This document shows positions 4,472-37,185 of a DNA stretch of 64,000 nucleotides, one piece after another. The position numbers were made by a program, and so were the translations under genes. Positions within the stretch are counted from its first letter, which is position 1. Every line of letters starts with the position of its first letter. Source of the stretch: a virus (Duplodnaviria > Heunggongvirae > Uroviricota > Caudoviricetes); IMG/VR virus record IMGVR_UViG_3300041955_001975, positions 26,738 through 90,737 of that record. The stretch is one strand, 5' to 3'. The notes under the pieces are model-generated. The model searched no databases. It saw nothing but the letters and a program-made list of their open reading frames with translations, and had not been told where the DNA came from.

Positions 4472-4504
4472 AAGAGTTGCAAAACACGGCTAACTGGTTT
4501 TCAG
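4472..4504 (-). promoter_or_regulatory. conserved intergenic motif copy A (candidate phage promoter)
   Basis: Plus strand: aagagttgcaaaacacggctaactggttttcag. Gene orientation: CTGAAAACCAGTTAGCCGTGTTTTGCAACTCTT. Confidence 0.5.
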
Positions 4505-4518
4505 CGGCGTGCGAATTG

Positions 4519-5025
4519 TCACTGCCTCGTAGCCGTCGTACAGAACGCCCCCTTCAGCGAGCAGCACTGCAACGCTCGGGCATTCCCCTTGCCGTAGGCC
4601 AGTAACACCGATGGGCCGCCGGCGTTGCCCTTGGCCCGGGTCCCGTTCATCTGGTAGAAATGCAACCGTCCTTCCAGGAACAGGACCCCATCCGCGTTGG
4701 CCCAGACATGCTCGAAGAACATCGCCGTTTCCGTTCTGGCGAAGATCAAAGCGATCCCGTTGCCGTGCTGACCCAGCCGGCCGAGCCATCGTCCCGTCTC
4801 CTGACCGTAGGGCGGATTGAGCCACACGCGGCCGAACCACGGCAGTTGCAGGCCGTCCTGTGGCGGAGTGTAATGGGACTTGGCTGTCGCCCACGGCTGG
4901 CCGGGGGCGGCGCAAGGGTCAAGATCAAACGGCCCAAGCGCCTTGATGATCTCCGGCGGCGTCAGCCAGCAGTCAGTTGCCCCTTGGAACGCGCGAGTAT
5001 GGCTGCCGATGCCTGTCTTCGTCAT
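4519..5025 (-). CDS. phage Dam-like DNA N6-adenine methyltransferase (NPPY)
   Basis: WLNPPYGQ catalytic motif in a ~170-aa protein typical of the phage N6A_Met/Dam family. Start MTKT overlaps the upstream stop as ATGA. Confidence 0.65.
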   Translation of the reverse strand: MTKTGIGSHTRAFQGATDCWLTPPEIIKALGPFDLDPCAAPGQPWATAKSHYTPPQDGLQLPWFGRVWLNPPYGQETGRWLGRLGQHGNGIALIFARTETAMFFEHVWANADGVLFLEGRLHFYQMNGTRAKGNAGGPSVLLAYGKGNARALQCCSLKGAFCTTATRQ

Positions 5026-6005
5026 GGGGCGACTTGCCGGGTTCGTTGGATTCGTTGAAGTGCTTGCTCGTACACGGCCTGCTTGATCTCGGCGGCAAAT
5101 GCCATCCGCCCGGCTTCCACCGCCGCGATCGAGGCGGTGCAAAGGCCGCCGAACGGCTCCCACACCACGTCGCCCGGGTCCGAGCAACTTTTCACGAGCA
5201 ACTGCATGAGGGCGAGCGGCTTCTGATTGGGATGGACCACGCTGCCTTGGACCTTGATCCGTTCCTTGCCGCGCACTGCCGGGACGTGCCAGACGTTGGT
5301 TACCCCGGCCTCACAGTGAAACTTCCCGCGAAGCTGCTCCCACTGTGAAGCCGCCAGGCTCGTCTCGCCGTCAACCGAAAAGTAGGGACGGCCCCAGGGA
5401 TCGCCGTGCGTGTTGGCGTAGTCCACCAGCCGTTGGAACACGTCGGGCGGCGGGAAGTACCACAGATAATCGCCGGTGAGATACTTGCGGGTGGCGGCGT
5501 TCTTCACGCCGCACGCCTTGTTCGACTTGGCGAGAGGCAGTCCGGTCCGCCGCCATTCCGCCCGGAGCCACTGCTGGGCAGAAAGCGGGGAGTCCGCGAC
5601 GGCCAATCGAAACTGGGGTTGCCGGACGTAGTGGACGCAGACCTCGGTGACGACGGGGAACTTCCGCAGCGTTTGCGTGTTCGTGTTGCCGGCGACGTGG
5701 GCCAGACCCTTGTCCCAGACGCAGCACGCCCGGTAAATCCAGCCCGCGTCCCGCAAGACGGGGTGGACTTCCGCCCAGCCGACCTCCGTGTTCCAAAACC
5801 AAAGCGTCGTGCTCGCGGTAGCACGGCGGGTCCATGCCGCAACGTGCGGCTCGTACCACTGGCGAAGTTGCTCCGGCCGTGCGAGATCGCCGTCGTAGCC
5901 ACTGAGACCGTAGGGCCCATCGGAAACGATGAGCGCCGGCGAGTCCCACTGATCGTAGTAGATCAGGGCGTCTCCGCAGCAGAGATGGATCAAGGGATCT
6001 CTCAT
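5022..6005 (-). CDS. DNA methyltransferase (N6_N4 MTase, beta class)
   Basis: N-terminal SDGPYG motif IV-like region. C-terminal HPNQKP...VWEPFGGLCTASIAA motif I region typical of PF01555-type enzymes. Start set at MRDPLIH. Confidence 0.6.
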   Translation of the reverse strand: MRDPLIHLCCGDALIYYDQWDSPALIVSDGPYGLSGYDGDLARPEQLRQWYEPHVAAWTRRATASTTLWFWNTEVGWAEVHPVLRDAGWIYRACCVWDKGLAHVAGNTNTQTLRKFPVVTEVCVHYVRQPQFRLAVADSPLSAQQWLRAEWRRTGLPLAKSNKACGVKNAATRKYLTGDYLWYFPPPDVFQRLVDYANTHGDPWGRPYFSVDGETSLAASQWEQLRGKFHCEAGVTNVWHVPAVRGKERIKVQGSVVHPNQKPLALMQLLVKSCSDPGDVVWEPFGGLCTASIAAVEAGRMAFAAEIKQAVYEQALQRIQRTRQVAP

Positions 6006-6089
6006 AACAAGTAGGCAAGGAAGGCAATGACAGGCCCGTAGGCTGCCAGAATCGGGACGGTGATGACCCAAGACGCGAAGGCGGAGACG

Positions 6090-7199
6090 TTACTCCATGT
6101 CCCTCCGCCGCCAGTAGCGGCCTTCCTTCGGAATGCCGTCGTCGGACAACTCACGGTACTTGAAGGTCACTGCCTGACCAACCTTGAAGTGCCGGCCCTG
6201 GAACCAGCCGGGCATGTCCACGCCCGGGTTGGCCGAGGCGAAGACGCCCATCTCGCCGGAGGCAAACTCGCGCTCGATGTCGGTTAGGCCGGAGAGTTCC
6301 AGCCGCTTGCCGCCATAGTCAACGATCAGGGCACCGATGCGGCCCAGATGCTTGCTGCCCTTGTCCGTCTCACGGCCGGATGTGAAGCCGACGATCATCG
6401 CCTCGGCGTCGGAGAACGGTTTGTACTTGAGGATGCCCCGATGCCGCTTCGGCGTCCAAGTTGCGTGCGGATTGCGGACGACGACGCCTTCGCCGCCCTG
6501 GTCAAGCACCTTTTGCAGGAAGGCTTCAACCTGTTTGGCCGCCTCTTCCGCTGTGTCGATCAGCTTCGTCTGCTGGTGCATGTAGCAGGCGGACAGGTCC
6601 GTGTTTTCCAGGGCGGCCCCCAGAAACTCCAACTCCTGGGCAAAGGTCGCCCGGCGGTTGATGAAGCAGAAGTCTCCGTCGAAGTCTTCAAGCCGCCCCT
6701 TGACCCATCCTTCAACCGCCTCGTAGTTGATGGCGGCGTGCAGGTTGGCGTTCTTGATCTCGCCGGAGGCAAACACCGAAGTGAGCGGCGGCGCGGAGTA
6801 GACGGCATACTGAATCTGCCGGAACCGCGGATCGGGCGTGTCGCCGCCACAGATCGACCGGCAAAGCTGGAAGTTCCCGCGGCCGGCCCACAGCTCGCCG
6901 TCCAGCAGGCAGCACGGCAAGAGATTCAGGAACCAATCCGGGGCGAGGATCGGATTGCCGTAGCGGCTCCACAGGCCCGTGGCGACCGGCTTGATCTTGG
7001 CCTTCATCCTGCCCGTCTTCGGGTCGGTGACCGAGGCCCAGGGGACCTCCACGGTCGGCATCCCTCGGCTCAAGCCGCCGTCCCAGAAACAGCGGGTGCC
7101 GTCGAGCTTCTCGGAGATAAGCCAGCCGGCAACGTCGTGCTTGGCCCGGACGTAGTGGTCGGCCAGTTGCAGGAACTCGCGGCGATTCGATGATGCCAT
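6090..7199 (-). CDS. ATP-dependent DNA ligase
   Basis: Adenylation motif I KxDGxR (ISEKLDGTRCF). Size of 369 aa is typical of phage T7-like ligases. Confidence 0.7.
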   Translation of the reverse strand: MASSNRREFLQLADHYVRAKHDVAGWLISEKLDGTRCFWDGGLSRGMPTVEVPWASVTDPKTGRMKAKIKPVATGLWSRYGNPILAPDWFLNLLPCCLLDGELWAGRGNFQLCRSICGGDTPDPRFRQIQYAVYSAPPLTSVFASGEIKNANLHAAINYEAVEGWVKGRLEDFDGDFCFINRRATFAQELEFLGAALENTDLSACYMHQQTKLIDTAEEAAKQVEAFLQKVLDQGGEGVVVRNPHATWTPKRHRGILKYKPFSDAEAMIVGFTSGRETDKGSKHLGRIGALIVDYGGKRLELSGLTDIEREFASGEMGVFASANPGVDMPGWFQGRHFKVGQAVTFKYRELSDDGIPKEGRYWRRRDME

Positions 7200-7327
7200 T
7201 ATGACGTGCCTCTACGGTGCTCAGATGGGTTATGATGAGAATGCGGCCCGGCGCAGCCGTTCCACCCGTTCGTCCTTGCGGCGAACGTGTAAACGTCGCT
7301 CGACCTGGATCGGCCGGCTGTAGACGA

Positions 7328-7765
7328 TCAGGCCGGGGCACCAAGCGGCATGTTCCAAGTAGCGGGTGCTGATGAATTCGACCGTCCGCATTCGCAAGCT
7401 TTCTTGGTTGACTGCCCCTGTCCAAAGAAAGAGTTGCAAAACACGGCCAACTGGTTTTCAGCCTCGCGCGAATTTTCCGCCGTGCTGACTTTAGGCGCTG
7501 GCCCGACCCCTGGTATGAACCCGGGTTGAGGCTCTGGACGGGGCCTTGGTTCAGGCCACTGGGGGCGCGGAATCCGGTGCTTGGCGAACACGTCTTCGCA
7601 CCGGCGAATGTACTCGTCGCGCACACCCAGGGCGCGTTGCAGACGGTCGGCCGTCTCCCAGGCCGCGATGAACCCTTCGTGCTCACGGGCGATCTCCCGC
7701 GCGTGGTCGATCTCCGCCAGGACGACAAAGGCAAGCACCAGGACGAGGATCACGATTCTCTGCAT
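7328..7765 (-). CDS. hypothetical secreted or membrane-anchored proline-rich protein
   Basis: From MQRIVILVLVLAFVVLA (signal/TM-like N-terminus), followed by a PEPRPRPEPQP segment. The C-terminal end reads through conserved intergenic motif copy B, so the 3' end is uncertain. Confidence 0.25.
   Translation of the reverse strand: MQRIVILVLVLAFVVLAEIDHAREIAREHEGFIAAWETADRLQRALGVRDEYIRRCEDVFAKHRIPRPQWPEPRPRPEPQPGFIPGVGPAPKVSTAENSREAENQLAVFCNSFFGQGQSTKKACECGRSNSSAPATWNMPLGAPA
7429..7461 (-). promoter_or_regulatory. conserved intergenic motif copy B
   Basis: aagagttgcaaaacacggccaactggttttcag. Identical to copy A at 32 of 33 positions. Confidence 0.5.
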
Positions 7766-8361
7766 GACTTGTACTCTCCTTGATAAGCCAGTAGCCGGCC
7801 GAAACACTCAACGAGATAGAGGGACATGCAGCAATGCCCCAGCTTGTTCCAGGGGCGCGGCACCAGGACGACGCAACCGTCATTGCCGGCCCGCTCGAAA
7901 AGATCGGTGTTCGCTTCGCTATCGTCCACCAGCAGGGCGTCAGGGCGCGCGAAGAGCCATTTGCGAGGCGTGATGGCGTACTGCCGGTGCATCCACGGCG
8001 GGAAGTGCTTCTGAATCCACTGGACCTTACCGGCCGCACAATCGGGGTCTTTGGTGGGACTGGTGGCAATGATGATGTTCTCCCGCCCCACCAGCCGCTC
8101 GCATTGCTCCAGCAGCCAGGGAAACTCCGGTGTCTCCGGCACGGAAGCCCAGTCGTCGCGTGTGAAAAACTCCCAGAAGGAGGGCCGAGTGAACCGCTGC
8201 TCGCCCAGCAGCCTATTGGCGATGTCGGCAAGATCAAACACCGAGCCGGCGGGCAGATCGCCGTAGTCCGTGGGGCTGACCTTGCAGCCCACAAGCGTCA
8301 GGAAGTACATGGACAGCGTATTGCACACGTCGTCCAGGTCGAGATAGATTCGACGGATCAT
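7750..8361 (-). CDS. HAD-superfamily 5'(3')-deoxyribonucleotidase-like phosphatase
   Basis: N-terminal HAD motif I DxDxV (IYLDLDDVCNTL). Size fits the NT5C-like dNMP phosphatases found in phages. Confidence 0.5.
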   Translation of the reverse strand: MIRRIYLDLDDVCNTLSMYFLTLVGCKVSPTDYGDLPAGSVFDLADIANRLLGEQRFTRPSFWEFFTRDDWASVPETPEFPWLLEQCERLVGRENIIIATSPTKDPDCAAGKVQWIQKHFPPWMHRQYAITPRKWLFARPDALLVDDSEANTDLFERAGNDGCVVLVPRPWNKLGHCCMSLYLVECFGRLLAYQGEYKSCRES

Positions 8362-9023
8362 TTGCTGCCCTTCTTGATGTGCCTCAACTCGGCCTTAGCC
8401 AGCGTCCGCTGATACAGTCCTTCCTTCATGCGGTACGTGGAAGCCAGCGACATGCCGATGGCATCCGCAATCTCTTGCAGTGAGTAGCCGGCCTCACGCA
8501 TTGCGACGTAGGTTCGCTCCTCCTGGCGGCAACAGCAGGACGCGATCAGATCACGCATCTCGAAGAGTGAATCGTTGCCGTTGCAAAGACAGGTCTCAGG
8601 CAAAATGCCGGAAGGCTGCATCGCCTTAATCCGCTTGCCATTGGCCGTTGCCGTCCACTGTGTCCCATGCGGGATGCGGATCATGGGTTCCGCCTCGGCA
8701 AATTGTCCCAAGCGGGAGGCAACTGCAACGCCGATGTACTCGACAGGCGCAGTGACGCCGCACCTTTTCTCCGCCATGAGGTTTACAGCCGCCACCAGGC
8801 CCATGAAGCCGACACTCGTCAGATCATCCCGCAAATAGCCGTACTCGGGAAAATCGCGGATGTAGGCACTCACTTTTGACACAACCAGCGGCATGTTGCC
8901 TTCGATCATCTGGCGGCGCGCTTCCAGATCGCCCGCCGCCACCTTCGGCGCAAGCGCCAGGTTGCCCTCTGTGCTCAGCGGCGTGGTCATCTTGGAAATG
9001 AGTTCAGTGTTGTATTGGCTCAC
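8358..9023 (-). CDS. sigma-70-family RNA polymerase sigma factor (phage-encoded)
   Basis: Region-2-like block (EGNMPLVVSKVSAY...DDLTSVGFMGLVAAV) and region-4 HTH (YSLQEIADAIGMSLASTYRMKEGL). Confidence 0.6.
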   Translation of the reverse strand: MSQYNTELISKMTTPLSTEGNLALAPKVAAGDLEARRQMIEGNMPLVVSKVSAYIRDFPEYGYLRDDLTSVGFMGLVAAVNLMAEKRCGVTAPVEYIGVAVASRLGQFAEAEPMIRIPHGTQWTATANGKRIKAMQPSGILPETCLCNGNDSLFEMRDLIASCCCRQEERTYVAMREAGYSLQEIADAIGMSLASTYRMKEGLYQRTLAKAELRHIKKGSK

Positions 9024-9526: not shown

Positions 9527-9570
9527 AGCGTCCCTCAGTTGTTGACTTATGTCGGGGGGATGGGAGCGAG

Positions 9571-12719: not shown

Positions 12720-12915
12720 GGTTTCCTCGGTTCTTGGAGGGCTCCCGGCACGTCGCACGACTACCCACCAGCCACGGCGGGCGTTACCGTTATGGCCGGG
12801 CTACGGTCCCTCCCAGTCAACAGCCGTGCGGTTATGGGTTCAGCGCAGGTCCGCGCAGACCGGGAGCCCTCTTGGCCATCATTCACGGGTTAGGTGCCGG
12901 CATCCGACACCTGGA

Positions 12916-13284
12916 CTAGAACACGTCATAGGTCCAGCCGGGGCCGACAACACTGGCCGCGACGACAGGGCCGGACATGAAGTTGCCGTTGCGGAAGCGG
13001 ATGAACATCTGAAGCGTTCGACCGATCCAGGCGTCCAGGCCGACGTTGGCATCCAAGACATAGACGCCTCGTAGGTACTGGCCAACTGTGGACTGCCGTA
13101 GGAGGGGCAAGGTGCTGCTCACTTCCACCAGACCGGAAGCGGGATTGAGTACGGTGATCTCGAAGAGGTGGTTATCCGTCTCAACCATGATCTTGGTGCC
13201 CTTGTTTTGCCGTGTCAGGTCGATTCCTGGCTGGGCTTTCAGGGCCTTCAGAACTTCTTCACGGGTCGGCAGTGCAGGCATCAT
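12916..13284 (-). CDS. hypothetical protein
   Basis: ATG 12 nt downstream of conserved motif copy C with a GGAG in between. 122 aa. Confidence 0.4.
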   Translation of the reverse strand: MMPALPTREEVLKALKAQPGIDLTRQNKGTKIMVETDNHLFEITVLNPASGLVEVSSTLPLLRQSTVGQYLRGVYVLDANVGLDAWIGRTLQMFIRFRNGNFMSGPVVAASVVGPGWTYDVF

Positions 13285-13294
13285 TCGCTCCACA

Positions 13295-14158
13295 TTAAGA
13301 GTTGCAAACCGACCCTTTCTGGTTTTCGTCCTCGATGTCTTTTATCAACGCGGCGTCGTCAATCTCGGCCATCGCCCAGGCCAGAGCCCGGGTAGGGAGC
13401 CCGTTGACCCCGGCCTCAAACATTCTGAGGATCATCGCATTGATCTGCTCCTTGGTGCGGCGAAACCGGAAGCGACGTTTGTACGTTTCATCGAGTCCCG
13501 GCAACTTGCCGCTCGATCCCCGCCGCCGGGCATCCGCGGTTTTCTCGGCAAGGAACAACTGCTCCTCCGGCGCTTCCTTGTACAGCCGCTCGATCGAGAC
13601 CTGCGACAAGAGGCCGTTGGCAGCCATCTCTTGGATTTCGACCGGGAGATCCAGCAGCCGGAAGCGTGCCGCGATCCACTTCGTGGGCCGATGCAGTTCC
13701 TTATTGGCCTGCCGAAGCGACACGCCGTCAGGGTACAGACGTTTGAGTGCGATGGCCTCTTGCAGCATGTTCAGGTCTTTCCGCTCAAGATTCTCCGTGA
13801 AGTTGAGCAGGCGGGCCTCGTAGTCCGTCAACTCGTGTCGGACCATCGCCGGAATGTTCGCCCACTTCAGAAAGAACTCGACCGCTCGAAAGCGCCGGTG
13901 GCCGGCGATCAGTCGATAGTCAAAGCCCGAGGGCACAGTGCCCACGACCTCGGCGGTGAGCTGCACCACGACGGGAAAATCGAGGCCCCTTAGTTCGACA
14001 CCCCCTCCCTTCTGGCGAATGCTCTCGGCCAATTCCGAGACCGACTCCAGCGTGAACTGCCCCCGGCAGTTGAAATCGGCATCGTAGTAGATGCCGCTCA
14101 ACGGCAGGGCAAACACGTCATAGTCCTGGAGTCTCTCCGCCACCAGCAGTCTCCTCAA
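13295..14158 (-). CDS. ParB-like nuclease domain protein
   Basis: ParB N-terminal domain signature LIAGHRRFRA. Confidence 0.6.
   Translation of the reverse strand: MRRLLVAERLQDYDVFALPLSGIYYDADFNCRGQFTLESVSELAESIRQKGGGVELRGLDFPVVVQLTAEVVGTVPSGFDYRLIAGHRRFRAVEFFLKWANIPAMVRHELTDYEARLLNFTENLERKDLNMLQEAIALKRLYPDGVSLRQANKELHRPTKWIAARFRLLDLPVEIQEMAANGLLSQVSIERLYKEAPEEQLFLAEKTADARRRGSSGKLPGLDETYKRRFRFRRTKEQINAMILRMFEAGVNGLPTRALAWAMAEIDDAALIKDIEDENQKGSVCNS
13297..13328 (-). promoter_or_regulatory. conserved intergenic motif copy C
   Basis: aagagttgcaaaccgaccctttctggttttcg, 12 nt upstream of the ATG of gene 12916..13284. Confidence 0.45.
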
Positions 14159-14968: not shown

Positions 14969-15040
14969 CTGCCAGGGCAGGACTCGAACCTGCAATGACG
15001 CGATTAACAATCGCGGACCTTGCCATTAGGCGACCTGGCA
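14969..15040 (-). tRNA. tRNA-Asn (anticodon GTT)
   Basis: Manual cloverleaf: acceptor TGCCAGG/CCTGGCA, anticodon stem CGCGA/TCGCG with loop TTGTTAA, T-arm GCAGG-TTCGAGT-CCTGC, discriminator G. CCA is not encoded. Confidence 0.6.
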
Positions 15041-15909: not shown

Positions 15910-16229
15910 GGTTGGTCAATCTCCAGTTTGGCGAAGACAATCTTGCGCATGTCGTCAAGGTGGTGTTGTGTGGCCACCAGGCAGCCCGCGCCGGCCTTGG
16001 CCTCCGTCGGCCGCAGGCCGCAGGACCATAGCTGGTTCATCAGGGCCTGGGCCTCCTCGCGGAACAATCGAAAGGTGGGCTCGACCGGCGCACCCTGGGG
16101 AATCGTGGTGTCGAATTCCAAGGGCTTGCGGATGCCCCGCCGCTCACCGTTGTGATGGCGGACAAGGACAGCCTCTCTCCTCGTGCATCGCGGCGTAGTG
16201 ATCGAGCAGCTTCTGTAGCACCTGGTCAT
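15906..16229 (-). CDS. hypothetical protein
   Basis: ORF only; no recognisable motifs. Confidence 0.25.
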   Translation of the reverse strand: MTRCYRSCSITTPRCTRREAVLVRHHNGERRGIRKPLEFDTTIPQGAPVEPTFRLFREEAQALMNQLWSCGLRPTEAKAGAGCLVATQHHLDDMRKIVFAKLEIDQP

Positions 16230-16452
16230 CCGACAGGGTGCTCAGCTTGAAGAGGCGGACGGGCTGCTGCTCGCCGATCAAGACCTCGCGGTACTGAACC
16301 TTCTGGAATGGAGGCGGCACTTCAACCCGCAAGGGCACCGCCAGCGGGACGGGCCTCTTCCGTGGCACGCAGGCATAGAGCACCGTCAGCCGATCGTCCA
16401 CGGTTCGGACACAGCCGTCCATCGGACCGCCAATCAGTACGGCGCGCTTCAT
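16144..16452 (-). CDS. hypothetical protein
   Basis: ORF only; 102 aa. Confidence 0.3.
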   Translation of the reverse strand: MKRAVLIGGPMDGCVRTVDDRLTVLYACVPRKRPVPLAVPLRVEVPPPFQKVQYREVLIGEQQPVRLFKLSTLSDDQVLQKLLDHYAAMHEERGCPCPPSQR

Positions 16453-22419: not shown

Positions 22420-23657
22420 TAGCGTGATGTGGTGTTGAGGCGCGAGACGGCGATGTCGCAGTTATGAACGTCCAGTTCGACGCCGATGCACTCGCGCCCC
22501 AGGCGCTTTGCAGCCACGAGGGTCGAGCCGCTGCCGGCAAAGGGATCAAGAACCACGCCGCCGGTCGGCGTGGACAAGAGTGTGAGCAAGTAGTCCATCA
22601 GCGCCAGCGGCTTCACCGTGGGGTGGTCGTTGTCCTCGCCGCGCTCTTTCTTCGTGGCCTTGGCGCAGTAAAAGAACCGGCTCGCACCGCCGGTGTCCCC
22701 GAAGCCCGTCAGGACACTACCTGTCCGATTGGCGTCAGACCCGTAGATGCCGCTGTCACCGGACGTGCCCTTACGTGTGCCGCTCGGCTTGCCGCTGGTG
22801 AGCGTGCCGGTCTGGGCGTCCAACTGCGCGGCGGCCTTTTCGTCCAAGAGGAGATTCGCAGGCCAACGGCCCTTGGTGGATTCGATGAACTGGGAACCTT
22901 TCTTCTCGGCAGACTGCTTGATGCGCTCGCCCTGTTTGCCGTGGAAGGTCGTGCCGTTGCGGTCCGCGTTGTACTTGTAGCCGGGGTTGTCGCCGATGCG
23001 GCAGGCGTCGATGTTCATGCCCGCCACGCCCCACGTCTCGGCGTTGTGGGCGATCGTGCCGTCCAGGGGCTTCATGGCCAGGATGATCGGTTCCCAGGCA
23101 GGCTTCAGGGCGAAGGCCCAGCCGGTCCACGCCTCAGCCAACGCGGTGGCCGGAGCCGTGATCTGCGCGGCGCGGAGCCGAGCGTCGGTGCCGGGGGCAT
23201 GAAGCCCATTGCCACCGCCGTAGCACCCGTTCCCCTTCCCCTCGTGCAGGTGATAGCCAGGGCGATCCAGCTTGTCGCCGATAACCTCACGCTGGGCACC
23301 CTTGGCCTTGTCGATCAGCTTGCCCACGTCGGCCGACTTCGGGAAACCCTGGCCCTGGAGCCACATCAGGGTGTCACGAATCTCCCAGCCGGCGTCTTCA
23401 ATGGCACAAACCAACCGGTGCCACGTCCGCGTGCCGCCGAACGCCGCCAGCAACGCACCGGGCTTACAGACCCTCGCAATGGCCCTCCAATAATCCGGGC
23501 CCGGCACGGCACTGTCCCAGCCCTCTCCCATGAAGGAGAGGCCGTAGGGAGGGTCCGTCACTACGTAGTCCGCGCACGCCTCGGGCAGGCCGGGGAGCAC
23601 ATTGCGCAGATCACCGTCGTAGAGGGCGATGTTGCCGTCTGTGTGGTAAGGTATCAA
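22419..23657 (-). CDS. DNA methyltransferase (N6_N4 MTase, DPPY)
   Basis: Motif IV VVTDPPYG at the N-terminus. Motif I HPTVKP...VLDPFAGSGSTLVAA at the C-terminus. Uses a TTG start. Confidence 0.7.
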   Translation of the reverse strand: MIPYHTDGNIALYDGDLRNVLPGLPEACADYVVTDPPYGLSFMGEGWDSAVPGPDYWRAIARVCKPGALLAAFGGTRTWHRLVCAIEDAGWEIRDTLMWLQGQGFPKSADVGKLIDKAKGAQREVIGDKLDRPGYHLHEGKGNGCYGGGNGLHAPGTDARLRAAQITAPATALAEAWTGWAFALKPAWEPIILAMKPLDGTIAHNAETWGVAGMNIDACRIGDNPGYKYNADRNGTTFHGKQGERIKQSAEKKGSQFIESTKGRWPANLLLDEKAAAQLDAQTGTLTSGKPSGTRKGTSGDSGIYGSDANRTGSVLTGFGDTGGASRFFYCAKATKKERGEDNDHPTVKPLALMDYLLTLLSTPTGGVVLDPFAGSGSTLVAAKRLGRECIGVELDVHNCDIAVSRLNTTSR

Positions 23658-23707
23658 GGATTGCCTTTCGCGGCTGTCGAGCAGGCCAATACGTTGAACG
23701 CCACATC

Positions 23708-23738
23708 AAGAGTTGCAAAACGCGAAAAACTGGTTTGG
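23708..23738 (-). promoter_or_regulatory. conserved intergenic motif copy D
   Basis: aagagttgcaaaacgcgaaaaactggtttgg, about 50 nt upstream of methyltransferase gene 22419..23657. Confidence 0.45.
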
Positions 23739-24272: not shown

Positions 24273-24308
24273 GGCAGTACGACCCCGGTAAGGAGGAAAG
24301 AGAGACAA

Positions 24309-24395
24309 TAGACACCGCCGGGACTCGAACCCGGACGCACCGAAAGCTGACGGCGAGGCTTTATGGGATGAATCTGTGTGCTCGCGCAGACGGTG
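24309..24395 (-). other. tRNA-like 3' fragment (T-arm plus acceptor 3' strand), not foldable into a full tRNA
   Basis: Minus strand: ...GCGTCCGGGTTCGAGTCCCGGCGGTGTCT. A 5' partner GACACCG exists only 85-108 nt upstream, and there is no canonical D or anticodon arm. Confidence 0.3.
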
Positions 24396-24424
24396 TTGCT
24401 GCTTTACAACACGGTGTCTTCGAG

Positions 24425-24452
24425 GGCCGCAGGCGGTGCGCACCGCCTGCGG
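24425..24452. repeat. 28-bp perfect palindrome
   Basis: GCCGCAGGCGGTGC|GCACCGCCTGCGGC, intergenic between genes 24619..25359 and 23745..24272. Confidence 0.5.
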
Positions 24453-24618
24453 CTGCGGACGAAAGACCCACCGAGAGTGAGCGTGCCCTGTGGCAGAGGC
24501 CCGATGGGTTTACTGATCTACTCGCCCATGATGCACGTCACCGTCGAACGGGAGCGGTGCAGCGAGTGTGTTGACCCTGCCGGCGGCCTTGTGGCTGATC
24601 CGGCAGGGAGCCGATGCG

Positions 24619-25450: not shown

Positions 25451-26359
25451 TCATGGTTCGGTCTCCTCGGTAAAGTGCCTCCTCATACGCTCTCGTAGCT
25501 TTCCTCTCTGCTCTTCGAGACTCTTGGCGTCGAGGTGCGTGATCCACTCCAGGCAGGCGTTCCAACCGTCCACCGCCGTCCGTGCATTTCTGGCGGCGAG
25601 CATCATGGGCCCGGCTTCAGGTGTCTCTTTCTCGGTCAGAACTTCTCGCAAGTTGCGAAGGTGGGCAACGGGCGTGAACTCGTTGTTGAACAACACGTCC
25701 AGCTTCCCTTGCCGTGCCGCCTCGCGCTGCTGCTTGATGAAGGCAGCGACCGTGACCTTGAACACGTGGACGGGGGCCGTCCTGGCAAGATCAAGAAACC
25801 GGTGCTGTTGGCTGCGAAGGACGCGAGACAGCACGTAGCCCGACATCAAAGGGATCTCCCCGCGGTCCACGGCCTTCTGGACCTCGGGTTGCAGACGCAG
25901 GAGACCCAGTTGCTCTCCGATCCAATGCGGACTCTTGTGGATCAGCCCTTGTAGTCGCGCGTGCGACATGCCAGGGTTGGCGTCCAGGATCTTCTTCAAC
26001 TGCCTTGCAAAGTCGGTTTGCTTGGTTGTCGGCCGTATGGCATTGGCTTGAATCTGCGCGGCCACGACCATTTCATCGGTCATGCCGTACCGGACCAGGC
26101 AGGGCACAGGCGATAGCTCCAACTCCTGGTAAGCGGTGTAGCGGTACATGCCGTCCACCACTTCCCACTTCCCGGGAAGACGGGGCGAGGGCCTGACGCA
26201 GATCGAGTTCAGCGGGCCGTTGGCCGCCAGCGAGTCTCGCAACTCGATGTACTCCAGCGACTCCTTTTCCACCAATCGGAGCAGCAGGCGGGTCTCGTGG
26301 ATGTCGCAGAGCGGAATGTCACGGGACTCGATCTTCACGGTGGACTCCGGGATCAACAA
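25451..26359 (-). CDS. ParB/sulfiredoxin-like N-terminal domain protein
   Basis: ParB-like block ICVRPSPRLPGKWEVVDGMYRYTA. Second ParB-like gene in this module; TTG start. Confidence 0.5.
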   Translation of the reverse strand: MLIPESTVKIESRDIPLCDIHETRLLLRLVEKESLEYIELRDSLAANGPLNSICVRPSPRLPGKWEVVDGMYRYTAYQELELSPVPCLVRYGMTDEMVVAAQIQANAIRPTTKQTDFARQLKKILDANPGMSHARLQGLIHKSPHWIGEQLGLLRLQPEVQKAVDRGEIPLMSGYVLSRVLRSQQHRFLDLARTAPVHVFKVTVAAFIKQQREAARQGKLDVLFNNEFTPVAHLRNLREVLTEKETPEAGPMMLAARNARTAVDGWNACLEWITHLDAKSLEEQRGKLRERMRRHFTEETEP

Positions 26360-26457
26360 CTACACCTACAGGAGATGTCAAAAACGGGCGGTTTTTTCAG
26401 AAAAGGGGCACCGTTTGTGAAAAAAACACTCGTATCTGACATCTCCTGTAGGTGTAG
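26360..26457. promoter_or_regulatory. 21-bp perfect inverted repeat pair with 56-bp AT-richer spacer (candidate origin/operator/centromere-like site)
   Basis: CTACACCTACAGGAGATGTCA ... TGACATCTCCTGTAGGTGTAG, in the divergent region between the ParB-like (minus) and primase (plus) genes. Confidence 0.5.
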
Positions 26458-26530
26458 CTATCCCAGCGTCTTCCGCGCCGGAAGACCTTCCACACTGAGC
26501 GCGTGTAAACGCATCTATCAGGGAAGCGAA

Positions 26531-30151: not shown

Positions 30152-30185
30152 CTGAAACCAGTTAGCCGGTTCCTGCAACTCTTTA
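30152..30185 (+). promoter_or_regulatory. conserved intergenic motif copy F (plus orientation)
   Basis: ctgaaaccagttagccggttcctgcaactctt, about 30 nt upstream of the exonuclease gene at 30216. Confidence 0.45.
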
Positions 30186-30215
30186 AGAGGGCGGGCAGCA
30201 CCTTGAGCACAGACC

Positions 30216-30833
30216 ATGAAAACCTACTCCTCCCTCGTGACCTGCAACGGCAATCTGTTGGTCTCCATCGACCTGGAGACAACCGGCACCCAGCCGGGCT
30301 ACCACGAGATCATCCAGATCGCCATCGTGCCGCTGAACAGCGACATCCGCCCCATCGCGGAGTTGCCGGTCTTCTACACCAACATGAGGCCGAAGTTCCC
30401 GCGCCGCGCGGAGAAATCGGCTACCGCCAAGCACGGCATTACGATCTCCGACCTGCTGATGCAAGCGCCGGAGCCGGAAAAGGTCGAGGACATGCTGGTG
30501 GAGTGGTTCGAGCGGCTGGAACTGCCCTTCGGCAAAGTGCTCGTCCCCCTGGCCCACAACTGGGCCTTCGAGTCCAGCTTCCTGAAGGCATGGCTCGGCT
30601 GCCCGATGGTGGACCGCATCTTCCACTCGCACGCCCGGGACGGGATGCTCACGGCCATTGCGCTCAATGACCGGGCGGCCTTCGCCGGAGAGCCGGAGCC
30701 CTTTAACCGGGTGGGTCTCGGCTCCATCTGCCACAAGCTGGGGATCGTCAACACGAAAGCGCACGACGCCCTGGCCGACGCCTATGCCGGGGCCGAGGTC
30801 TACCGCGCAATGGCCCTGGGAATGGTGGGATAA
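30216..30833 (+). CDS. DnaQ-like (DEDDh) 3'-5' exonuclease
   Basis: Exo I VSIDLETTG, Exo II HNWAFE, Exo III HDALADAYAGAEVY. Confidence 0.7.
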   Translation: MKTYSSLVTCNGNLLVSIDLETTGTQPGYHEIIQIAIVPLNSDIRPIAELPVFYTNMRPKFPRRAEKSATAKHGITISDLLMQAPEPEKVEDMLVEWFERLELPFGKVLVPLAHNWAFESSFLKAWLGCPMVDRIFHSHARDGMLTAIALNDRAAFAGEPEPFNRVGLGSICHKLGIVNTKAHDALADAYAGAEVYRAMALGMVG

Positions 30834-32257: not shown

Positions 32258-32362
32258 CGTAGTGTCTCCAGAAAGAGAAAGGGTGTCCAGGCGTAAGCCG
32301 GGGCACCCTTTCGTCGTTTACGGCGTGCTGCGGGTCCTGCTGGGGACCCGTTAGGAAAGCCG

Positions 32363-32635
32363 TCAGGGAATCGGGCACGGAGCGTCGGGGTCCGGGTTCG
32401 GACTGCCGGGCTGCAAAAGCTGCCGGCTGCGCGATGCCTCCCTCACGCTCATCAGCGTGCTCTTGAGATCGGACCTGCGAGGGTCGATCGAGTCCAGATC
32501 ATGGGAGGCGCGAGCAGCCCGCGCCGCCTCCCGAGCGTCTTGAATGTCCCGGCCGACATCGTTAGGATTGCGGCCCTGGGCCTCAATCAAGGCGATGCCC
32601 GGCGTCGGGTTGGTGGCCTTGCTTACGTTCTGCAT
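32363..32635 (-). CDS. small paralog family protein 1 (MQNV...AQGR family)
   Basis: MQNVSKATNPTPGIALIEAQGRNPNDVGRDIQDAREAA...DAPCPIP. One of four tandem paralogs. Confidence 0.45.
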   Translation of the reverse strand: MQNVSKATNPTPGIALIEAQGRNPNDVGRDIQDAREAARAARASHDLDSIDPRRSDLKSTLMSVREASRSRQLLQPGSPNPDPDAPCPIP

Positions 32636-32652
32636 GGATGCCCTTTCTTGGG

Positions 32653-32949
32653 CTACACGATGGGTTGTGGAGAAGGGGCGGCCGTATCCGTGGCCACGGC
32701 CCTGGGATAAGTCGCCAGGGCCGGCTCGCCTCCCCACTCCCCGCCCCGCCTGTCCACGACCGCCTGCCTCATGGCCAGCAGCTTGCGTTGGACGGGCGTG
32801 TGGTCCACTGACACAGCGCGTTGGCGGACCTCCGCCGTGTGCCGAGCGTCCTGAACGTCCTGGTAGACCTCATCGTGACTGCGGCCCTGGGCCTCGATCA
32901 TCACGATGTCCGGCGAGGCGCTGTTGGTATTACCTACGTACTGAGTCAT
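32653..32949 (-). CDS. small paralog family protein 2
   Basis: MTQYVGNTNSASPDIVMIEAQGRSHDEVYQDVQDARHTA... Confidence 0.45.
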   Translation of the reverse strand: MTQYVGNTNSASPDIVMIEAQGRSHDEVYQDVQDARHTAEVRQRAVSVDHTPVQRKLLAMRQAVVDRRGGEWGGEPALATYPRAVATDTAAPSPQPIV

Positions 32950-33036
32950 GGTCGCCTCGTGTCGGGGATCGGACATCCCCATGACTGCGGCCTTGGGCCG
33001 CAATCATGGTGATGTCTGGGTGTCCCCTTCGTCTTG

Positions 33037-33315
33037 TCAGGGAATCGGGCACGGGGCATCCGTGTCCGGGGTCGTACCGATGGTGGGCGTCAGATCACGC
33101 TCCGCGTGCGCCTTCATCATCATGGCCTTCAGCCTGTCCTTGACCCCGGAGGTGAGGGTGCCGGAGGGTGCCGCTTCGTGCGACAACCGCGCCGCCGCCA
33201 CCGTCTGCCGGGCATTCTGGATGTCCTGGTGGACGGCATCGCTGTCGCGGCCCTGGGCCGGAATCAGCACGATGTCCGGCGATGGGCTGGTGACGGGTTT
33301 TCCTACGTTCTGCAT
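33037..33315 (-). CDS. small paralog family protein 3
   Basis: MQNVGKPVTSPSPDIVLIPAQGRDSDAVHQDIQNARQTV...DAPCPIP. Confidence 0.45.
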   Translation of the reverse strand: MQNVGKPVTSPSPDIVLIPAQGRDSDAVHQDIQNARQTVAAARLSHEAAPSGTLTSGVKDRLKAMMMKAHAERDLTPTIGTTPDTDAPCPIP

Positions 33316-33380
33316 GGGAATGTCCCTTCTTGCGTGAGCAGCGATCGGTGCCTGGTCTACGAGACCCGGCACAAGGTCGC

Positions 33381-33629
33381 TTACTCGGTGGCGCTGTCCG
33401 GCACGCTGGCCACGCCGGCGGCCTCGCTGACCTTCTGGCTGACGGGCTTCCAGCCGGCCTGGCCATAGACCTGGGCCTGGTCCCGCTCGGGAACCTGCCC
33501 CGTCGCCTTGTTGTACTCGTTGAGCGACTTGGCCATCGCCACGTCGCGGTCCACCTGGTCGCCCGTCGCACCTTGCGCCTGGATCAAAACGGTGTCGGGG
33601 CACTTGCCCAAAGTTCCGATGTTCTGCAT
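33381..33629 (-). CDS. small paralog family protein 4
   Basis: MQNIGTLGKCPDTVLIQAQGATGDQVDRDVAMAKSL... Confidence 0.4.
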   Translation of the reverse strand: MQNIGTLGKCPDTVLIQAQGATGDQVDRDVAMAKSLNEYNKATGQVPERDQAQVYGQAGWKPVSQKVSEAAGVASVPDSATE

Positions 33630-33715
33630 TTTCGTACTCGCTTTCTGAAACAGAGAAAACAACACAACACAGACGGAAACGAACCTACATCGGTCCGCCT
33701 CTCACTCGCACTACG

Positions 33716-33895
33716 CTACTTCTTGCGATGCTTGGCGAACTGCGCCAGTCGCTTGGCCAACGCGACCTGCCGGTTGGTCGTCGCATCCTTGTGGGGCCTG
33801 GCCTCGAACTGGGAGAGCGTCATGCCCGCCGCCTTGGCCTTCGCCGTCAACGCCCCGGGGTGCTGGATCGCCCCCTGAATCCACTTGTCAGCCAC
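33716..33895 (-). CDS. conserved small phage protein (59 aa)
   Basis: GTG start with GAAGGAGG 7 nt upstream. Sequence ADKWIQGAIQHPGALTAKAKAAGMTLSQFEARPHKDATTNRQVALAKRLAQFAKHRKK. Not in the ORF track (too short). Confidence 0.4.
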   Translation of the reverse strand: MADKWIQGAIQHPGALTAKAKAAGMTLSQFEARPHKDATTNRQVALAKRLAQFAKHRKK

Positions 33896-33918
33896 GAGAT
33901 GCCTCCTTCACGAAAAGG

Positions 33919-36900
33919 TTAGTAAACGATCGCCGAAACCAGGGACGCAACAGTGCTTGCGTCGGTCTGAATTGCCGTGAACTGGGCCGAATTCAGCGTG
34001 GCCCCCCACGCCTGAGAGACAAAAGGCGCGATGAGAGTTACGGTACTGGCCATGCCGAGGGCCAGGTTCGACACGTCGGCCGCCAACCGGGCAACGTCCG
34101 TCCCAAGCCGAGTGGCCGCCGTCACAATCGCAGTCGTCGAGCCTACCGAGATGCCGCGCACCACATTGGCCACGGCATCCAGTTGCACGGTCGCTGCCGA
34201 TCCCGGCACGTTGTAGAGGTAGTCCGACATGGCGGGTGTGTACGCGGCCTCGGCCTTCGCAAAATCCATCTTCAGGGCATACGTCGCACTGGTGTTCGTG
34301 GGGTCGATCACCGGGGCACCGACCTGGCCCAGGCTAAAGAAATCCCCCAGGTAGCCAAAGTTCTTGAGACCGGGATTCTTGCTGTCCATGATCTTCGTCG
34401 TGGAAAGGTCGAGCACAACGGCGGCAGGCACGGGGATGTCGGGGACCGACGCCTCCTGCAAGTAATCCAGGTTCAGGTCCAACTGCTTGGGAGATCCCGA
34501 AGTTGTCCCGGCATACTGATTGGGAAACACGACCGGCTGTGCCGTAAAGCCCACGTCCGTAGGCGTCGGGTCGCCCCAGTCGGCGTGCGGCCCGAAGATG
34601 ACGTTCGGACCGCCGACAAAGACTCCCCGGAGAATAGGCTGAATGCCGCCGGTAGGCACCGTGGAGCCGTCTCCCGTCAGGCCGCCGTCCGCCGCCGGTG
34701 CAACGGCATAGCTGGTGGACGGCAGTTGGCCGACCGGCAGGGGGCCGCCGGCATTCATACCGATGCCGCCGCCCCCGAAACCCACCGTCTCCTCCACGGA
34801 CAGCGGCCAGGTCTGGCTGGTCGGCAAATTGGCCGGCCAGTAGAAGGGGTTCTGCGTCATCGCCCCCGCATTCACCGGGCACTCGCACTCGAAGTCGATG
34901 CAGTTCTCCGCGGAGTTGTAGGCGGCCTTCTGCACCAGCACGGGCACGGCCGCCGAGGCGATCGCCCCAGGGACGTTGAACGTGACGCAATCGAAGGTCT
35001 CCAGGTTCAGCTTGTTCAAGAACGCGCGGAACCTGATCCGCTTCCAGATCATGGAGTAACGGATGAGCCAGAAGGTGGCCATCTTGAGGATGATGTCCGG
35101 CTGATTGAAGATCCACCAGTCGTAATCCTTCTCCCAGAGCCCATAGCGCGAGACGTTGTGCCTCAAGACGATCAACTGCTCCTGCTGCTCCCCCGGCTCA
35201 GGAGCGTAGCCCATCCTCCACTTGACGTTCATCTTGGTGACCAGGTTCTCCGTGTCCGTGGAGGCGATCTCCATGCCGCGCTCGGAGTCGATGTCGCTGG
35301 TGGTGATCGTGTCCACCGGCGTCGGCGGCTCAGGCAGGTAGGTGAGGTAGACCACTTCGTTCTCGATCCAGACCGCACAGCGGCACTGGAAGGCGATGTC
35401 CTTGAGCACTTGCAGCACGTTCTTGCGATCCAGCAAGGGGAAGTTGGCCGGGAAGGGGGCCAGCTTCGTGCGGCAATGGTTGAAGGAGGTCGCGTCCCAG
35501 GTCAGGTCCGTATAGTTCTCGATGAGGTACTCCAGGATGTCCACGATGTTCGGGCCGATCGACGACTGAAACGTGACGTAAATCTGGTCCGACCAGCCTG
35601 TGATCCAGTTGGTGTTCAAGTCCTGGTAGACCACCAGGGAGAGCCGTTGGTTCAGCACCACCTGCACGGCCGTGATGCTCCCGTACTGCACGGTCTCGAC
35701 CGTGTACCAGCTCGGCGGCACCACGTTCAGCACGCGCTGGCCGTTGACCGTCTGGTACGCCTTGACGCACAGCACCTGGCCGGGCGTGATGGAGGCGATG
35801 AAATTGCAACCCTGATTTGTGCCCAATTGGACCTTGGCCCCTGCGTCCGCCCAGAACTGCTTGGCGGTCAACATCGGCGGCTTCACGATGGGGGCCGTCG
35901 GCGTCGTGAGAATGGTGACCGCCTCGTCCAGAAGGCAGGGGTTAGCAGACAAGCTGCCAAGGCTGCCGCAGGGTATGTCGGCGGTGAAGTGCAGTGTGCT
36001 TACCGGCGGCGGGTTTAGCAGCGGGCAATCAATGAGATGCTGTGCCGCCTTCAGCTCCGCGTTCGCCACTTCCAGGTTGTAGTGAAGGATAACCTGCGGG
36101 TCCTCCGTCGCAGTGATGGTGAAGACCTCGCCCTGGAACGATCCCTGGAGGTATGCGCTGCCGAGCGTGAGCCACAATTGCTGGTTTTGCGGGAAATCCT
36201 CTCCCCCGAGTATGTGGATCGGATTGGCACCGGTGAATCCGGCCAACTCCGACAACTGCCGTGCGCGCGTGGCCCTCATGCAGGCTTCCTTATGATTCAG
36301 CAGGAATTCCTCGTTGGCCATCTGGTTGGAAATCGCCTGCGCCTGGTCCTTGTACTGCTGGTACTTGACCGGGTCCACGTCCTGCCAAAGGTCGGCCGCC
36401 TGCTGATACACGTTCATTTGCTGGCCTTGCTTCCAGAGGCCAAACAGCGTGGAGGGGTCGAAGTCCGTCCCGTTGGCGTACAGCGGCACGACCTCGCCGG
36501 TCCAGGTCACGAATCCCACGGGGTCCAGGGTCACGCCTTCGACGGCCAGATTGACCTCCAAGGCGGGGTAGTCGGCCACCTGTCCAAAGACCATCGGCCA
36601 CGCCTTGCCGATCATCTCGCTGGGAATGTAGGGAAAGCTGCCCTCCTCCACCGAGAAGCCGACTTCCAGGTTCTCCAAAGGCGAGACGATCGTGACCTTC
36701 AAGGTACGATCGCGCTCGTTCCAGGTCACCGGCGTATTGATTCGCCCGCTGAAGACCAGGAACTTGTCGGCCAGATCGAGCCCCTGGAACCACTGGTAGA
36801 TGCGGACATGGACATTGTAGATGTCGTAGGCGTCGAAGATCGCCTTGAGCGACCCGTCCGTGTCGTCCAGCGTCAGCCCGACCTGCGCCGAGCTGCCGTT

Positions 36901-37098
36901 GAAGGACAGGTCCAGCACGTCATCCAGGTCACCCAGTTCAACGATCTTGCCGGGGATGGGCGGCGGCCCGGGGAGATCCCTGTCGGCGTAAGACTGCGTG
37001 GCAGCACCCTTGTACCAGTCGATCTCGACGATCGAGATCGGCTCAGTCCCATACTGGGCGGCGAGCTTGGCCAGGCCGTTGCTGGAAATCGTTCGCAT
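33919..37098 (-). CDS. large tail protein (tail tip/host-specificity J-like)
   Basis: 1059 aa at the distal end of the tail module. Has a Gly-rich C-terminal region. Preceded by conserved motif copy E. Confidence 0.45.
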   Translation of the reverse strand: MRTISSNGLAKLAAQYGTEPISIVEIDWYKGAATQSYADRDLPGPPPIPGKIVELGDLDDVLDLSFNGSSAQVGLTLDDTDGSLKAIFDAYDIYNVHVRIYQWFQGLDLADKFLVFSGRINTPVTWNERDRTLKVTIVSPLENLEVGFSVEEGSFPYIPSEMIGKAWPMVFGQVADYPALEVNLAVEGVTLDPVGFVTWTGEVVPLYANGTDFDPSTLFGLWKQGQQMNVYQQAADLWQDVDPVKYQQYKDQAQAISNQMANEEFLLNHKEACMRATRARQLSELAGFTGANPIHILGGEDFPQNQQLWLTLGSAYLQGSFQGEVFTITATEDPQVILHYNLEVANAELKAAQHLIDCPLLNPPPVSTLHFTADIPCGSLGSLSANPCLLDEAVTILTTPTAPIVKPPMLTAKQFWADAGAKVQLGTNQGCNFIASITPGQVLCVKAYQTVNGQRVLNVVPPSWYTVETVQYGSITAVQVVLNQRLSLVVYQDLNTNWITGWSDQIYVTFQSSIGPNIVDILEYLIENYTDLTWDATSFNHCRTKLAPFPANFPLLDRKNVLQVLKDIAFQCRCAVWIENEVVYLTYLPEPPTPVDTITTSDIDSERGMEIASTDTENLVTKMNVKWRMGYAPEPGEQQEQLIVLRHNVSRYGLWEKDYDWWIFNQPDIILKMATFWLIRYSMIWKRIRFRAFLNKLNLETFDCVTFNVPGAIASAAVPVLVQKAAYNSAENCIDFECECPVNAGAMTQNPFYWPANLPTSQTWPLSVEETVGFGGGGIGMNAGGPLPVGQLPSTSYAVAPAADGGLTGDGSTVPTGGIQPILRGVFVGGPNVIFGPHADWGDPTPTDVGFTAQPVVFPNQYAGTTSGSPKQLDLNLDYLQEASVPDIPVPAAVVLDLSTTKIMDSKNPGLKNFGYLGDFFSLGQVGAPVIDPTNTSATYALKMDFAKAEAAYTPAMSDYLYNVPGSAATVQLDAVANVVRGISVGSTTAIVTAATRLGTDVARLAADVSNLALGMASTVTLIAPFVSQAWGATLNSAQFTAIQTDASTVASLVSAIVY

Positions 37099-37152
37099 GG
37101 CAAGACCTCAAACGTGCAATCGGGACGTGCAATGGGCGCGAGGCCCCGCTGT

Positions 37153-37185
37153 AAGAGTTGCTAAAACGGCGGAACTGGTTTCCAG
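37153..37185 (-). promoter_or_regulatory. conserved intergenic motif copy E
   Basis: aagagttgctaaaacggcggaactggtttccag, about 55 nt upstream of the tail gene start at 37098. Confidence 0.45.

Follow-up and report, generated by a model that had tools for sequence, protein, structure and literature searches.

Six copies of a two-block motif in a Caudoviricetes genome probably constitute a promoter class served by a phage-encoded sigma factor

Introduction

A 64,000-nucleotide (nt) stretch of Caudoviricetes DNA (IMG/VR record IMGVR_UViG_3300041955_001975, positions 26,738 to 90,737; hereafter the window, at its full length) carries six copies of a two-block motif, AAACCAG followed at a constant distance by CAACTCT, each placed shortly before a gene and pointing in the direction of that gene. 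What function do these copies serve, and which factor reads them? We consider it probable that the six copies represent one type of phage promoter, of the middle class, used by the host core RNA polymerase together with a sigma factor that the phage itself encodes; we infer the reader, the start site and the timing from the arrangement of the motif and the genes. Phages that encode a sigma factor with its own promoter class are described in textbooks, and gene control by a phage sigma is accordingly a known principle; the phage group and the consensus sequence are new. To our knowledge, few promoters have been characterised for Planctomycetota, the phylum to which we assign the hosts.

The motif has an invariant core and a spacer of fixed length

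The repeated unit, AAACCAG-N13-GCAACTCTT-N5-GG, spans 36 bp, and 18 of its positions are invariant in all six copies. The core, AAACCAG-N13-GCAACTCTT, is found on the minus strand at 4472-4500, 7429-7457, 13297-13325, 23708-23736 and 37153-37181, and on the plus strand at 30155-30183. In a scan of the window that tolerated up to three mismatches, each of these six matched with none, and no degenerate copy was detected. The exact scan therefore confirmed the number and the positions of the copies given by the original prediction, which had been made from the sequence alone. Shuffled versions of the window contained a mean of 0.28 sites at up to three mismatches, and six sites were reached in none of 100 shuffles; from the base composition (62.6% G+C), about 1e-5 exact cores are expected in the window.

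The six copies can be aligned without gaps when anchored on the last T of CTCTT, and the GG five bases 3' of CTCTT is invariant in all of them. The spacer is constant in length and free in sequence, being T-rich toward its 3' end, with GTTTTG in three copies. A variable spacer of six to seven nucleotides had been proposed earlier, but the gapless alignment contradicts it, as the distance between the blocks in the form in which they were then written is always 13 nt.

The window covers all or much of a phage genome, and its genes were called with a codon-usage model trained on its own long open reading frames (ORFs). The packaging, head and tail module lies on the minus strand and extends from the large terminase gene (62145-63818) down to about 37.2 kb, including the tape-measure gene (44229-48059) and collagen-like fibre genes. 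A long array of DNA-metabolism genes, also on the minus strand, begins at about 26.4 kb and reaches base 170, and the sole short plus-strand block, at 26.5-31.2 kb, contains the primase and exonuclease genes. All six motif copies are located at junctions of co-directional genes and share the orientation of those genes, and the single plus-strand copy falls within the single plus-strand block, as had been predicted. The distance from CTCTT to the likeliest start codon is 19, 37, 12, 50, 54 and 32 nt for copies 1 to 6, respectively; the resulting range of 12-54 nt is close to the 9-55 nt reported previously.

Non-coding DNA makes up 8.8% of the window, and five of the six cores are non-coding (P ~3e-5). 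The previous statement that every copy is intergenic thus holds for these five and fails for copy 3, which is situated within the end of the ParB-like ORF 13295-14143, such that the last T of the motif is the first base of the TAA stop codon. Copy 2 is read through by a mechanically defined ORF, 7328-7807, whose tail over the motif is probably non-coding, since a 1-nt indel shifts this tail in a relative with a 94%-identical sigma.

The layout fits the geometry of sigma-70-family promoters

When the first invariant G is tentatively assigned to +1, CAACTCT occupies positions -13 to -7 and AAACCAG positions -34 to -28, while the (T/A)G ahead of CAACTCT sits at -15/-14, where extended -10 promoters have TG. 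With the GG as +1/+2, the motif layout is, as far as the sequence can tell, the standard geometry of sigma-70-family promoters, and only the sequences of the blocks differ from TTGACA/TATAAT. The original prediction had stated that the motif does not fit the -35/-10 spacing of sigma-70; this was incorrect, as the blocks fall at about these positions given the same assignment of GG. Its exclusion of sigma-54 was correct. TTGCA, reminiscent of the sigma-54 promoter TGGCAC-N5-TTGCW, occurs in four copies, but in the six-copy alignment the pair located 10 nt upstream of its GC is TA or another pair, and never GG.

In two-block promoters, the spacer keeps its length while its sequence is free, and AAACCAG-N14-CAACTCT-N6-GG aligns without gaps in all six copies, with a 1-nt change at one site of a relative. 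They are also oriented toward the genes that they precede, and this arrangement was observed for the six window copies and in every relative examined. The invariant GG lies at the expected start-site position, about 7 nt past the -10 element, which is an indirect hint at the start.

The phage encodes a divergent sigma-70-family protein

The ORF at 8358-9023 had been called a sigma-70-family gene, and several comparisons agree with this call. It matches PHROG 351, 'RNA polymerase sigma factor', with an E value of 1.4e-8 over residues 13-81. Pfam gave only a weak HTH_IclR match, and the similarity to the NCBIfam models of SigF/G, RpoS, SigE/K and RpoD was weak and sub-threshold. In a collection of 5.8 billion proteins, only 18 homologues were found at E <= 0.001. 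A family profile built from the homologues matched Geobacillus SigF (1l0o_C) with an E value of 1.7e-12 over regions 2 and 4, followed by SigA, RpoD and RpoS chains.

The AlphaFold2 model (mean predicted local distance difference test score 78.8) consists of two helical domains, residues 1-127 and 152-210, connected by a low-confidence linker, residues 128-151. In a Foldseek search against the PDB, nearly all of the top 50 matches listed were sigma factors or sigma-RNA polymerase complexes (sigma-32, sigma-S, SigA, SigB and sigma-E). As judged from these profiles and the predicted fold, the ORF product is a divergent sigma-70-family protein, comprising sigma-2 and sigma-4 without a folded sigma-3, that stands outside the curated subfamilies. 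The absence of a folded sigma-3 fits the extracytoplasmic function (ECF, group 4) sigma factors, whereas the best sequence matches are SigF/G, RpoS, SigE/K and RpoD.

A phage-encoded RNA polymerase was also considered as the reader and was rejected, as scans of ORFs, most but not all of the largest ones included, against Pfam and PHROGs revealed no such family.

Related phages carry clade-specific versions of the motif at the same junctions

The relatives of the sigma come from uncultured-phage or viral contigs, metagenome contigs and metagenome-assembled genomes (MAGs) of Planctomycetota. The MAG matches belong to Pirellulales (a contig of 698 kb, with a 94%-identical sigma at its end), Thermoguttaceae and Planctomycetaceae, and on the basis of these matches we assign the host phylum to Planctomycetota. 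Some of the relatives appear to be integrated. Identical contigs were obtained from peat and sediment sites, for example in the samples Ga0181517 and Ga0181524. A near-identity search of the first 25 kb of the window against deposited phages gave no match, and no close deposited-phage homologue was found for the sigma, the polymerase or the terminase: PolA and the terminase are about 23-29% identical to those of known phages, and the sigma matched only two uncultured fragments in the deposited-phage collection, with 23-30% identity. The gene order around the sigma gene is kept among the relatives, as metallophosphatase, ParB-like protein, 122-aa protein, PolA, small ORFs, sigma, NT5C, small ORF and ligase.

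About 840 kb of related loci (numbered L001 and so on) were searched for the motif, allowing at most one mismatch in AAACCAG and requiring an exact C..CTCT, with 13-15 nt between the blocks. Every credible match was on the gene strand. This comparison upstream of orthologous genes, which the original prediction had proposed, revealed motifs of the same architecture at two syntenic junctions. The first is the 3' end of the ParB-like gene, before the 'M..LPTPEE' gene, and corresponds to the position of copy 3; a motif is kept at this location in at least six related clades. The second, corresponding to the position of copy 2, lies just past the sigma and NT5C genes, before a conserved small ORF and the ligase gene. 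The sequences of the blocks are specific to each clade, with at least seven variants, while the two-block architecture, the place and the orientation are kept (Table 2). At most sites of the closer clades, (A/T)GTGG follows the downstream block.

Table 2. Motif variants in the window clade and in related loci, with the identity of the encoded sigma to the window sigma
Clade or locus	Sigma identity	Motif
Window clade (L001, L015, L043, L046, L099)	~94-100% where the gene is in the locus	AAACCAG-N14-CAACTCTT
L019 group	65%	AAACCAG-N14-CAACTCTC
L022	60%	AAACCAG-N14-CGTCTCTC
L016 / L047	52%	AAACCAG-N13/14-CGTCTCTC
L025 / L032 / L086	45-51%	GCGCA(G/C)A(A/C)C-N14-CGACTCTC
L034	43%	AACTCCAAA-N12-CGGCAGTCTATC
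L102	33%	CTACTCYAAAAA-N12-GTTGATTTCATTGT
L093	32%	AATCCAAARC-N8-TGGCCGCT

An unbiased search for spaced 6+6 words (three per locus) again led to these motifs; apart from coding repeats, no other groups of several words emerged. This search needs three exact copies per locus and so misses clades with two or degenerate copies, and many loci yielded only noise. The longer contigs contain several copies: the L016 contig (54.7 kb) has at least five, including one on the opposite strand, and the L029 contig (52.9 kb) has three. Downstream of every copy checked, a co-oriented ORF begins within 40 nt. Between close relatives there are few substitutions, all in the spacer or the flanks and none in the blocks, in numbers too small for a test. 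When viral contigs were scanned for the exact window pattern, two short, near-identical relatives (L001 and L015) were the only true matches, as the 13 others were either chance matches in a single copy or parts of conserved coding sequence, in unrelated phages of low GC content. Scans with two of the clade-variant patterns gave many irrelevant single-copy matches, with identical spacers within the contigs of one sample.

This comparative series is the strongest evidence that we obtained, as a fixed place, orientation and form combined with drifting blocks is what would be expected of a promoter read by a phage-borne specificity factor. We lean toward the broader view that the window represents a lineage of phages and prophages of Planctomycetota not described before, in which a compact sigma and a two-block promoter have co-diversified into at least seven specificities, potentially forming orthogonal pairs.

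The residue of the window sigma that aligns with Q437 of E. coli sigma-70 is Ser103. At this position, Ser or Cys is present in the two clades with CAAC in the motif, Arg in three of the four clades with CG(T/A)C, and Asn in the fourth (L032, CGAC). This hints at the residue as a candidate specificity switch for the -10 block, on the basis of six clades that are not independent and with L032 as an exception. The recognition helix of region 4 also differs between the -35 types. A simple residue-to-base code linking region 4 to the -35 block was ruled out, because the helix differs within the AAACCAG group as well.

A scheme for transcription, and the points against it

The original prediction had favoured a bipartite promoter over a terminator and had named the phage sigma as its likely reader. 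The promoter geometry, the co-orientation with genes, the lack of a shared hairpin, the motifs of the relatives and the sigma-70-family ORF all support this proposal, and from them we infer both the reader and the start site. In the scheme that we propose, the sigma-4 domain would bind AAACCAG as a -35-like element, the sigma-2 domain would bind (T/A)GCAACTCT as a -10-like element, and transcription would begin 6-7 nt past the latter, at or beside the invariant GG. The copies head co-directional groups of DNA-metabolism genes (five methyltransferases, ligase, PolA, SNF2-like helicase, ParB-like and exonuclease genes) and the gene for a 1059-aa protein. The class looks like a middle-type one.

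The first dose of sigma would come from read-through of host-type early transcription. Given that copy 3 is upstream of the array containing the sigma gene, the sigma would then be amplified by positive feedback through this copy. The early transcription itself presumably starts in the sole divergent intergenic region, 26360-26530, although this is speculation.

The products encoded downstream of the copies include methyltransferases, an ATP-dependent ligase, a family-A DNA polymerase, a protein weakly similar to SNF2, a trypsin-like protease, a metallophosphatase, ParB-like proteins and an RNase T-type exonuclease (Table 1). The 1059-aa protein encoded after copy 5 has no match at all in Pfam or PHROGs.

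Table 1. The sigma gene, the motif copies (36-bp units) and adjoining genes in the window
Feature	Coordinates	Strand	Remarks
Sigma-70-family gene	8358..9023	-	221 aa; sigma-2, disordered linker, sigma-4; proposed to read the motif; part of the gene array that copy 3 heads
Motif copy 1	4465..4500	-	Non-coding; begins 18 nt beyond the stop codon that closes the Dam-like methyltransferase gene 4519-5025, with ATG 4452 following 19 nt after its end
Motif copy 2	7422..7457	-	37 nt upstream of a conserved 53-aa ORF, 7230-7391, followed by the DNA ligase gene; the syntenic junction of relatives also has the motif
Motif copy 3	13290..13325	-	Shares its sequence with the final 11 codons of the ParB-like gene; ATG 13284 follows after 12 nt; heads the array with the PolA and sigma genes
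Motif copy 4	23701..23736	-	Non-coding; 50 nt upstream of the DNA methyltransferase gene 22419-23657
Motif copy 5	37146..37181	-	Non-coding; followed after 54 nt by the 1059-aa gene 33919-37098, where the tail module ends
Motif copy 6	30155..30190	+	Only plus-strand copy; followed after 32 nt by the RNase T-like exonuclease gene 30216-30833
First gene after copy 3	12916..13284	-	122 aa, 'MMPALPTREE...'; orthologues in relatives are all preceded by the motif of their own clade
First gene after copy 2	7230..7391	-	Conserved small ORF ('..TVEFISTRYLEHAAWCPGLIV..')
ParB-like gene	13295..14143	-	ParB_N and HTH_ParB domains; 3' end holds copy 3

Several observations weigh against this scheme. The sigma is below every curated NCBIfam and Pfam cut-off, and the nearest approach was that of a relative, P0017, with 42.8 bits against the 42.9 of TIGR02937. 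The co-occurrence of sigma and motif is not independent, as all of the carriers are related phages that share many genes. Inside the AAACCAG group, the recognition helix of region 4 varies between LASTYR/LATTYR and LSSLHV/ISSLHV. Within the window, the main structural module (63.8 to 37.2 kb) has no motif copy ahead of it, and late transcription is thus left unexplained. Finally, the GG opens a GGAG Shine-Dalgarno sequence at several sites, 7-13 nt before the ATG, so that a start at the GG would produce leaders of only 7-13 nt beginning with the Shine-Dalgarno sequence, which is unusual.

Two observations concern the same regions. Five DNA methyltransferase genes are present in the window (863-1513, 2257-3015, 4519-5025, 5022-5993 and 22419-23657), and their products comprise N6_N4_Mtase twice, Dam, the D12 class and a PHROG methyltransferase; three of the five genes lie downstream of motif copies. 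The sole divergent intergenic region, between the ParB-like gene 25451-26359 on the minus strand and the primase gene on the plus strand, is taken up by a 47-nt inverted repeat (26360-26457), 85% complementary with a 4-nt centre, which could be an operator/early-promoter region or an origin.

Alternative explanations

The copies may be promoters and yet be read by something other than the phage sigma, either an alternative sigma of the host, such as a planctomycete ECF factor, or the host holoenzyme recruited by a phage activator at AAACCAG. We regard this as unlikely, although the geometry, the orientation and the placement fit it equally well. An ECF-like appearance is given by the AAC-containing -35 block, and by the CGTC -10 block in two related clades. 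On the other hand, the blocks vary by clade although all of the hosts are Planctomycetota, as would be expected of a phage-borne factor and less so of a conserved host sigma, and no separate activator candidate was identified. The presence of the sigma gene in every carrier locus follows from the fact that the loci were found via that gene.

Less likely still is a signal at the RNA level, whereby the motif would act in a read-through transcript as a processing site, an anti-termination (nut/put-like) site or a translational operator. All copies are on the sense strand near a Shine-Dalgarno sequence, which the GG opens as GGAG at several sites, and their positions at co-directional junctions would include them in any read-through RNA. 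However, folding 59 nt around each copy yielded six different structures, with z scores against shuffles of +0.41, +0.87, -0.03, +0.80, -0.10 and -1.40, and neither a shared hairpin nor conserved secondary structure or covariation was found across the six copies. A spacer of free sequence and fixed length, with a 1-nt change in one relative, is typical of two-site recognition of duplex DNA, and the range of 12-54 nt to the start codons is not tied to the ribosome-binding site. A known RNA family was likewise rejected, as the only match of the window to Rfam at the gathering threshold was the tRNA at 14969-15040.

We give little credence to a DNA site unrelated to transcription, namely a binding site of a ParB-like protein, a recombination sequence at module boundaries or a methyltransferase target. 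Two ParB-like proteins and five DNA methyltransferases are encoded in the window, and repeats at gene junctions can mark mosaic boundaries. Yet the motif is asymmetric and locked to the gene orientation in the window and in every relative, which neither parS-type sites nor recombination linkers need, and the pair of blocks, separated by a spacer of free sequence and placed at a constant distance from the GG, fits the anatomy of a promoter.

An intrinsic terminator or attenuator between genes is highly improbable: a terminator consensus scan flagged copy 2 alone (a weak hairpin followed by GTGTTTTGCA) and copy 5 can form a 10-bp hairpin before GTTTTAG, but such hairpins are absent or different in the other copies, the folding energies are within the shuffled range (z from -1.4 to +0.9), the conserved bases lack self-complementarity, and the convincing terminators of this genome consist of a GC-rich hairpin followed by CTTTCT, as in the gaps 51872-51977 and 49270-49354.

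Comparison with known systems

A promoter class read by the phage sigma would have its closest known counterpart in phiEco32 gp36 and the sigma of phage 7-11. These divergent two-domain factors direct the host core RNA polymerase to a private promoter class, with several copies upstream of middle and late genes, including one before the sigma gene itself, and with the consensus AATGTA or TGATGT near -11.5 together with -35 contacts (PMC12276001; PMC4331800). The logic proposed here is the same, with a phage sigma, its own multi-copy promoter class and a copy upstream of the sigma gene, whereas the consensus is AAACCAG-N14-CAACTCT and the hosts are Planctomycetota instead of Enterobacteria. No sequence kinship was detected in the search of deposited phages, which should hold both, and gp36 itself was not compared directly. 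In contrast to phiEco32, no gp79-like co-factor or anti-sigma was identified in this phage.

The classical phage sigma cascades are those of SPO1, with gp28 and gp33/34, and of T4, with gp55, in which sigma replacement leads to a consensus unlike that of the host. In SPO1 two sigmas act in succession, whereas T4 gp55 recognises nothing but the -10-like TATAAATA. The present phage differs from both in having one sigma gene and one two-block class. Promoters of ECF factors have sequences such as GGAAC-N16/17-CGT(C). The two-domain sigma without sigma-3, the AAC in the -35 block and the CGTC -10 block of relatives resemble this group, whereas the sigma-2 region is nearer to SigF/SigG, RpoS and RpoD, the -10 block of the window is CAAC, and no anti-sigma partner was seen. 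The promoters of the T7 group are contiguous sequences of about 23 bp read by the phage polymerase, present in several near-identical copies per genome and diverging together with the specificity determinant. They are the classical parallel to the present motif, which likewise occurs in several copies and drifts between related phages, and differ from it in that the latter has two blocks.

If confirmed, the promoter class would provide the first regulatory handle on the uncultured phages and prophages of Planctomycetota (in Pirellulales, Thermoguttaceae and Planctomycetaceae MAGs). The series would then offer one sigma scaffold with varied -35 and -10 blocks at the same genomic positions, with which the code of sigma-DNA recognition becomes testable, and the sigma/promoter pairs would be candidate orthogonal expression parts.

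Other features of the window and its relatives

Ahead of the PolA gene, a GC-rich stretch of about 170 nt between genes (12720-12915, minus strand) is kept in relatives (L019 5890-6021, L022 5933-6101, L025 3359-3545 and L026 2841-2996) and is closed by a long stem, GAGGGCTCCCGG...CCGGGAGCCCTC. Folded as a consensus, the five sequences form 39 pairs, 10 of them with compensatory changes, and no Rfam match was obtained even at E<=1. The region is a candidate structured RNA or leader of a new type. Another non-coding block that is conserved, 707-862 on the minus strand, reads GGTGAGGGTGGCC...GTTTCGGTGT...GGGTGGGAAC...AGCGGAGA...CCGACATAGC. It lies upstream of an AAA_28/thymidylate-kinase-like gene, has counterparts in L019 (16180-16338) and L022 (13589-13753), and has no Rfam match.

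The window contains one tRNA gene on the minus strand (14969-15040; Rfam score 57.4 bits). A separate tRNA-like 3' half, GGTGCGTCCGGGTTCGAGTCCCGGCGGTGTC, is located in the gap 24273-24618 (minus strand) and recurs in L019 (2696-2829) and L022 (3251-3375). It may be the remnant of an att site, and relatives sit in large Planctomycetota MAG contigs.

The sequence AACTGTCT(G/C) directly precedes some start codons in the relatives (L019 9469-9573 and 18269-18338; L022 9457-9519 and 14535-14598; L027 5821-5997; L028 5935-6080). It is not enriched in the window, where three one-mismatch matches were found as compared to 3.9 expected.

Repeats were also found within coding regions, all on the minus strand. 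The collagen-like Gly-X-Y genes at 56500-59577, which have tail-fibre and collagen-like PHROG matches, show a 105-nt period with 11 near-identical copies. Downstream of the 1059-aa gene, small paralogous genes (32363-33629) contain a 48-nt core five times and a 111-nt repeat three times (D10, D11). Three consecutive large genes of 551, 556 and 303 aa (39263-43506) have common repeats of 95-158 nt at their 3' ends (D9, D14), and they probably encode paralogous tail-fibre or receptor-binding proteins. Lastly, a homologue of ribosomal protein S21 (Pfam Ribosomal_S21) is encoded among the DNA-metabolism genes of the relative L022, at 16162-16350.

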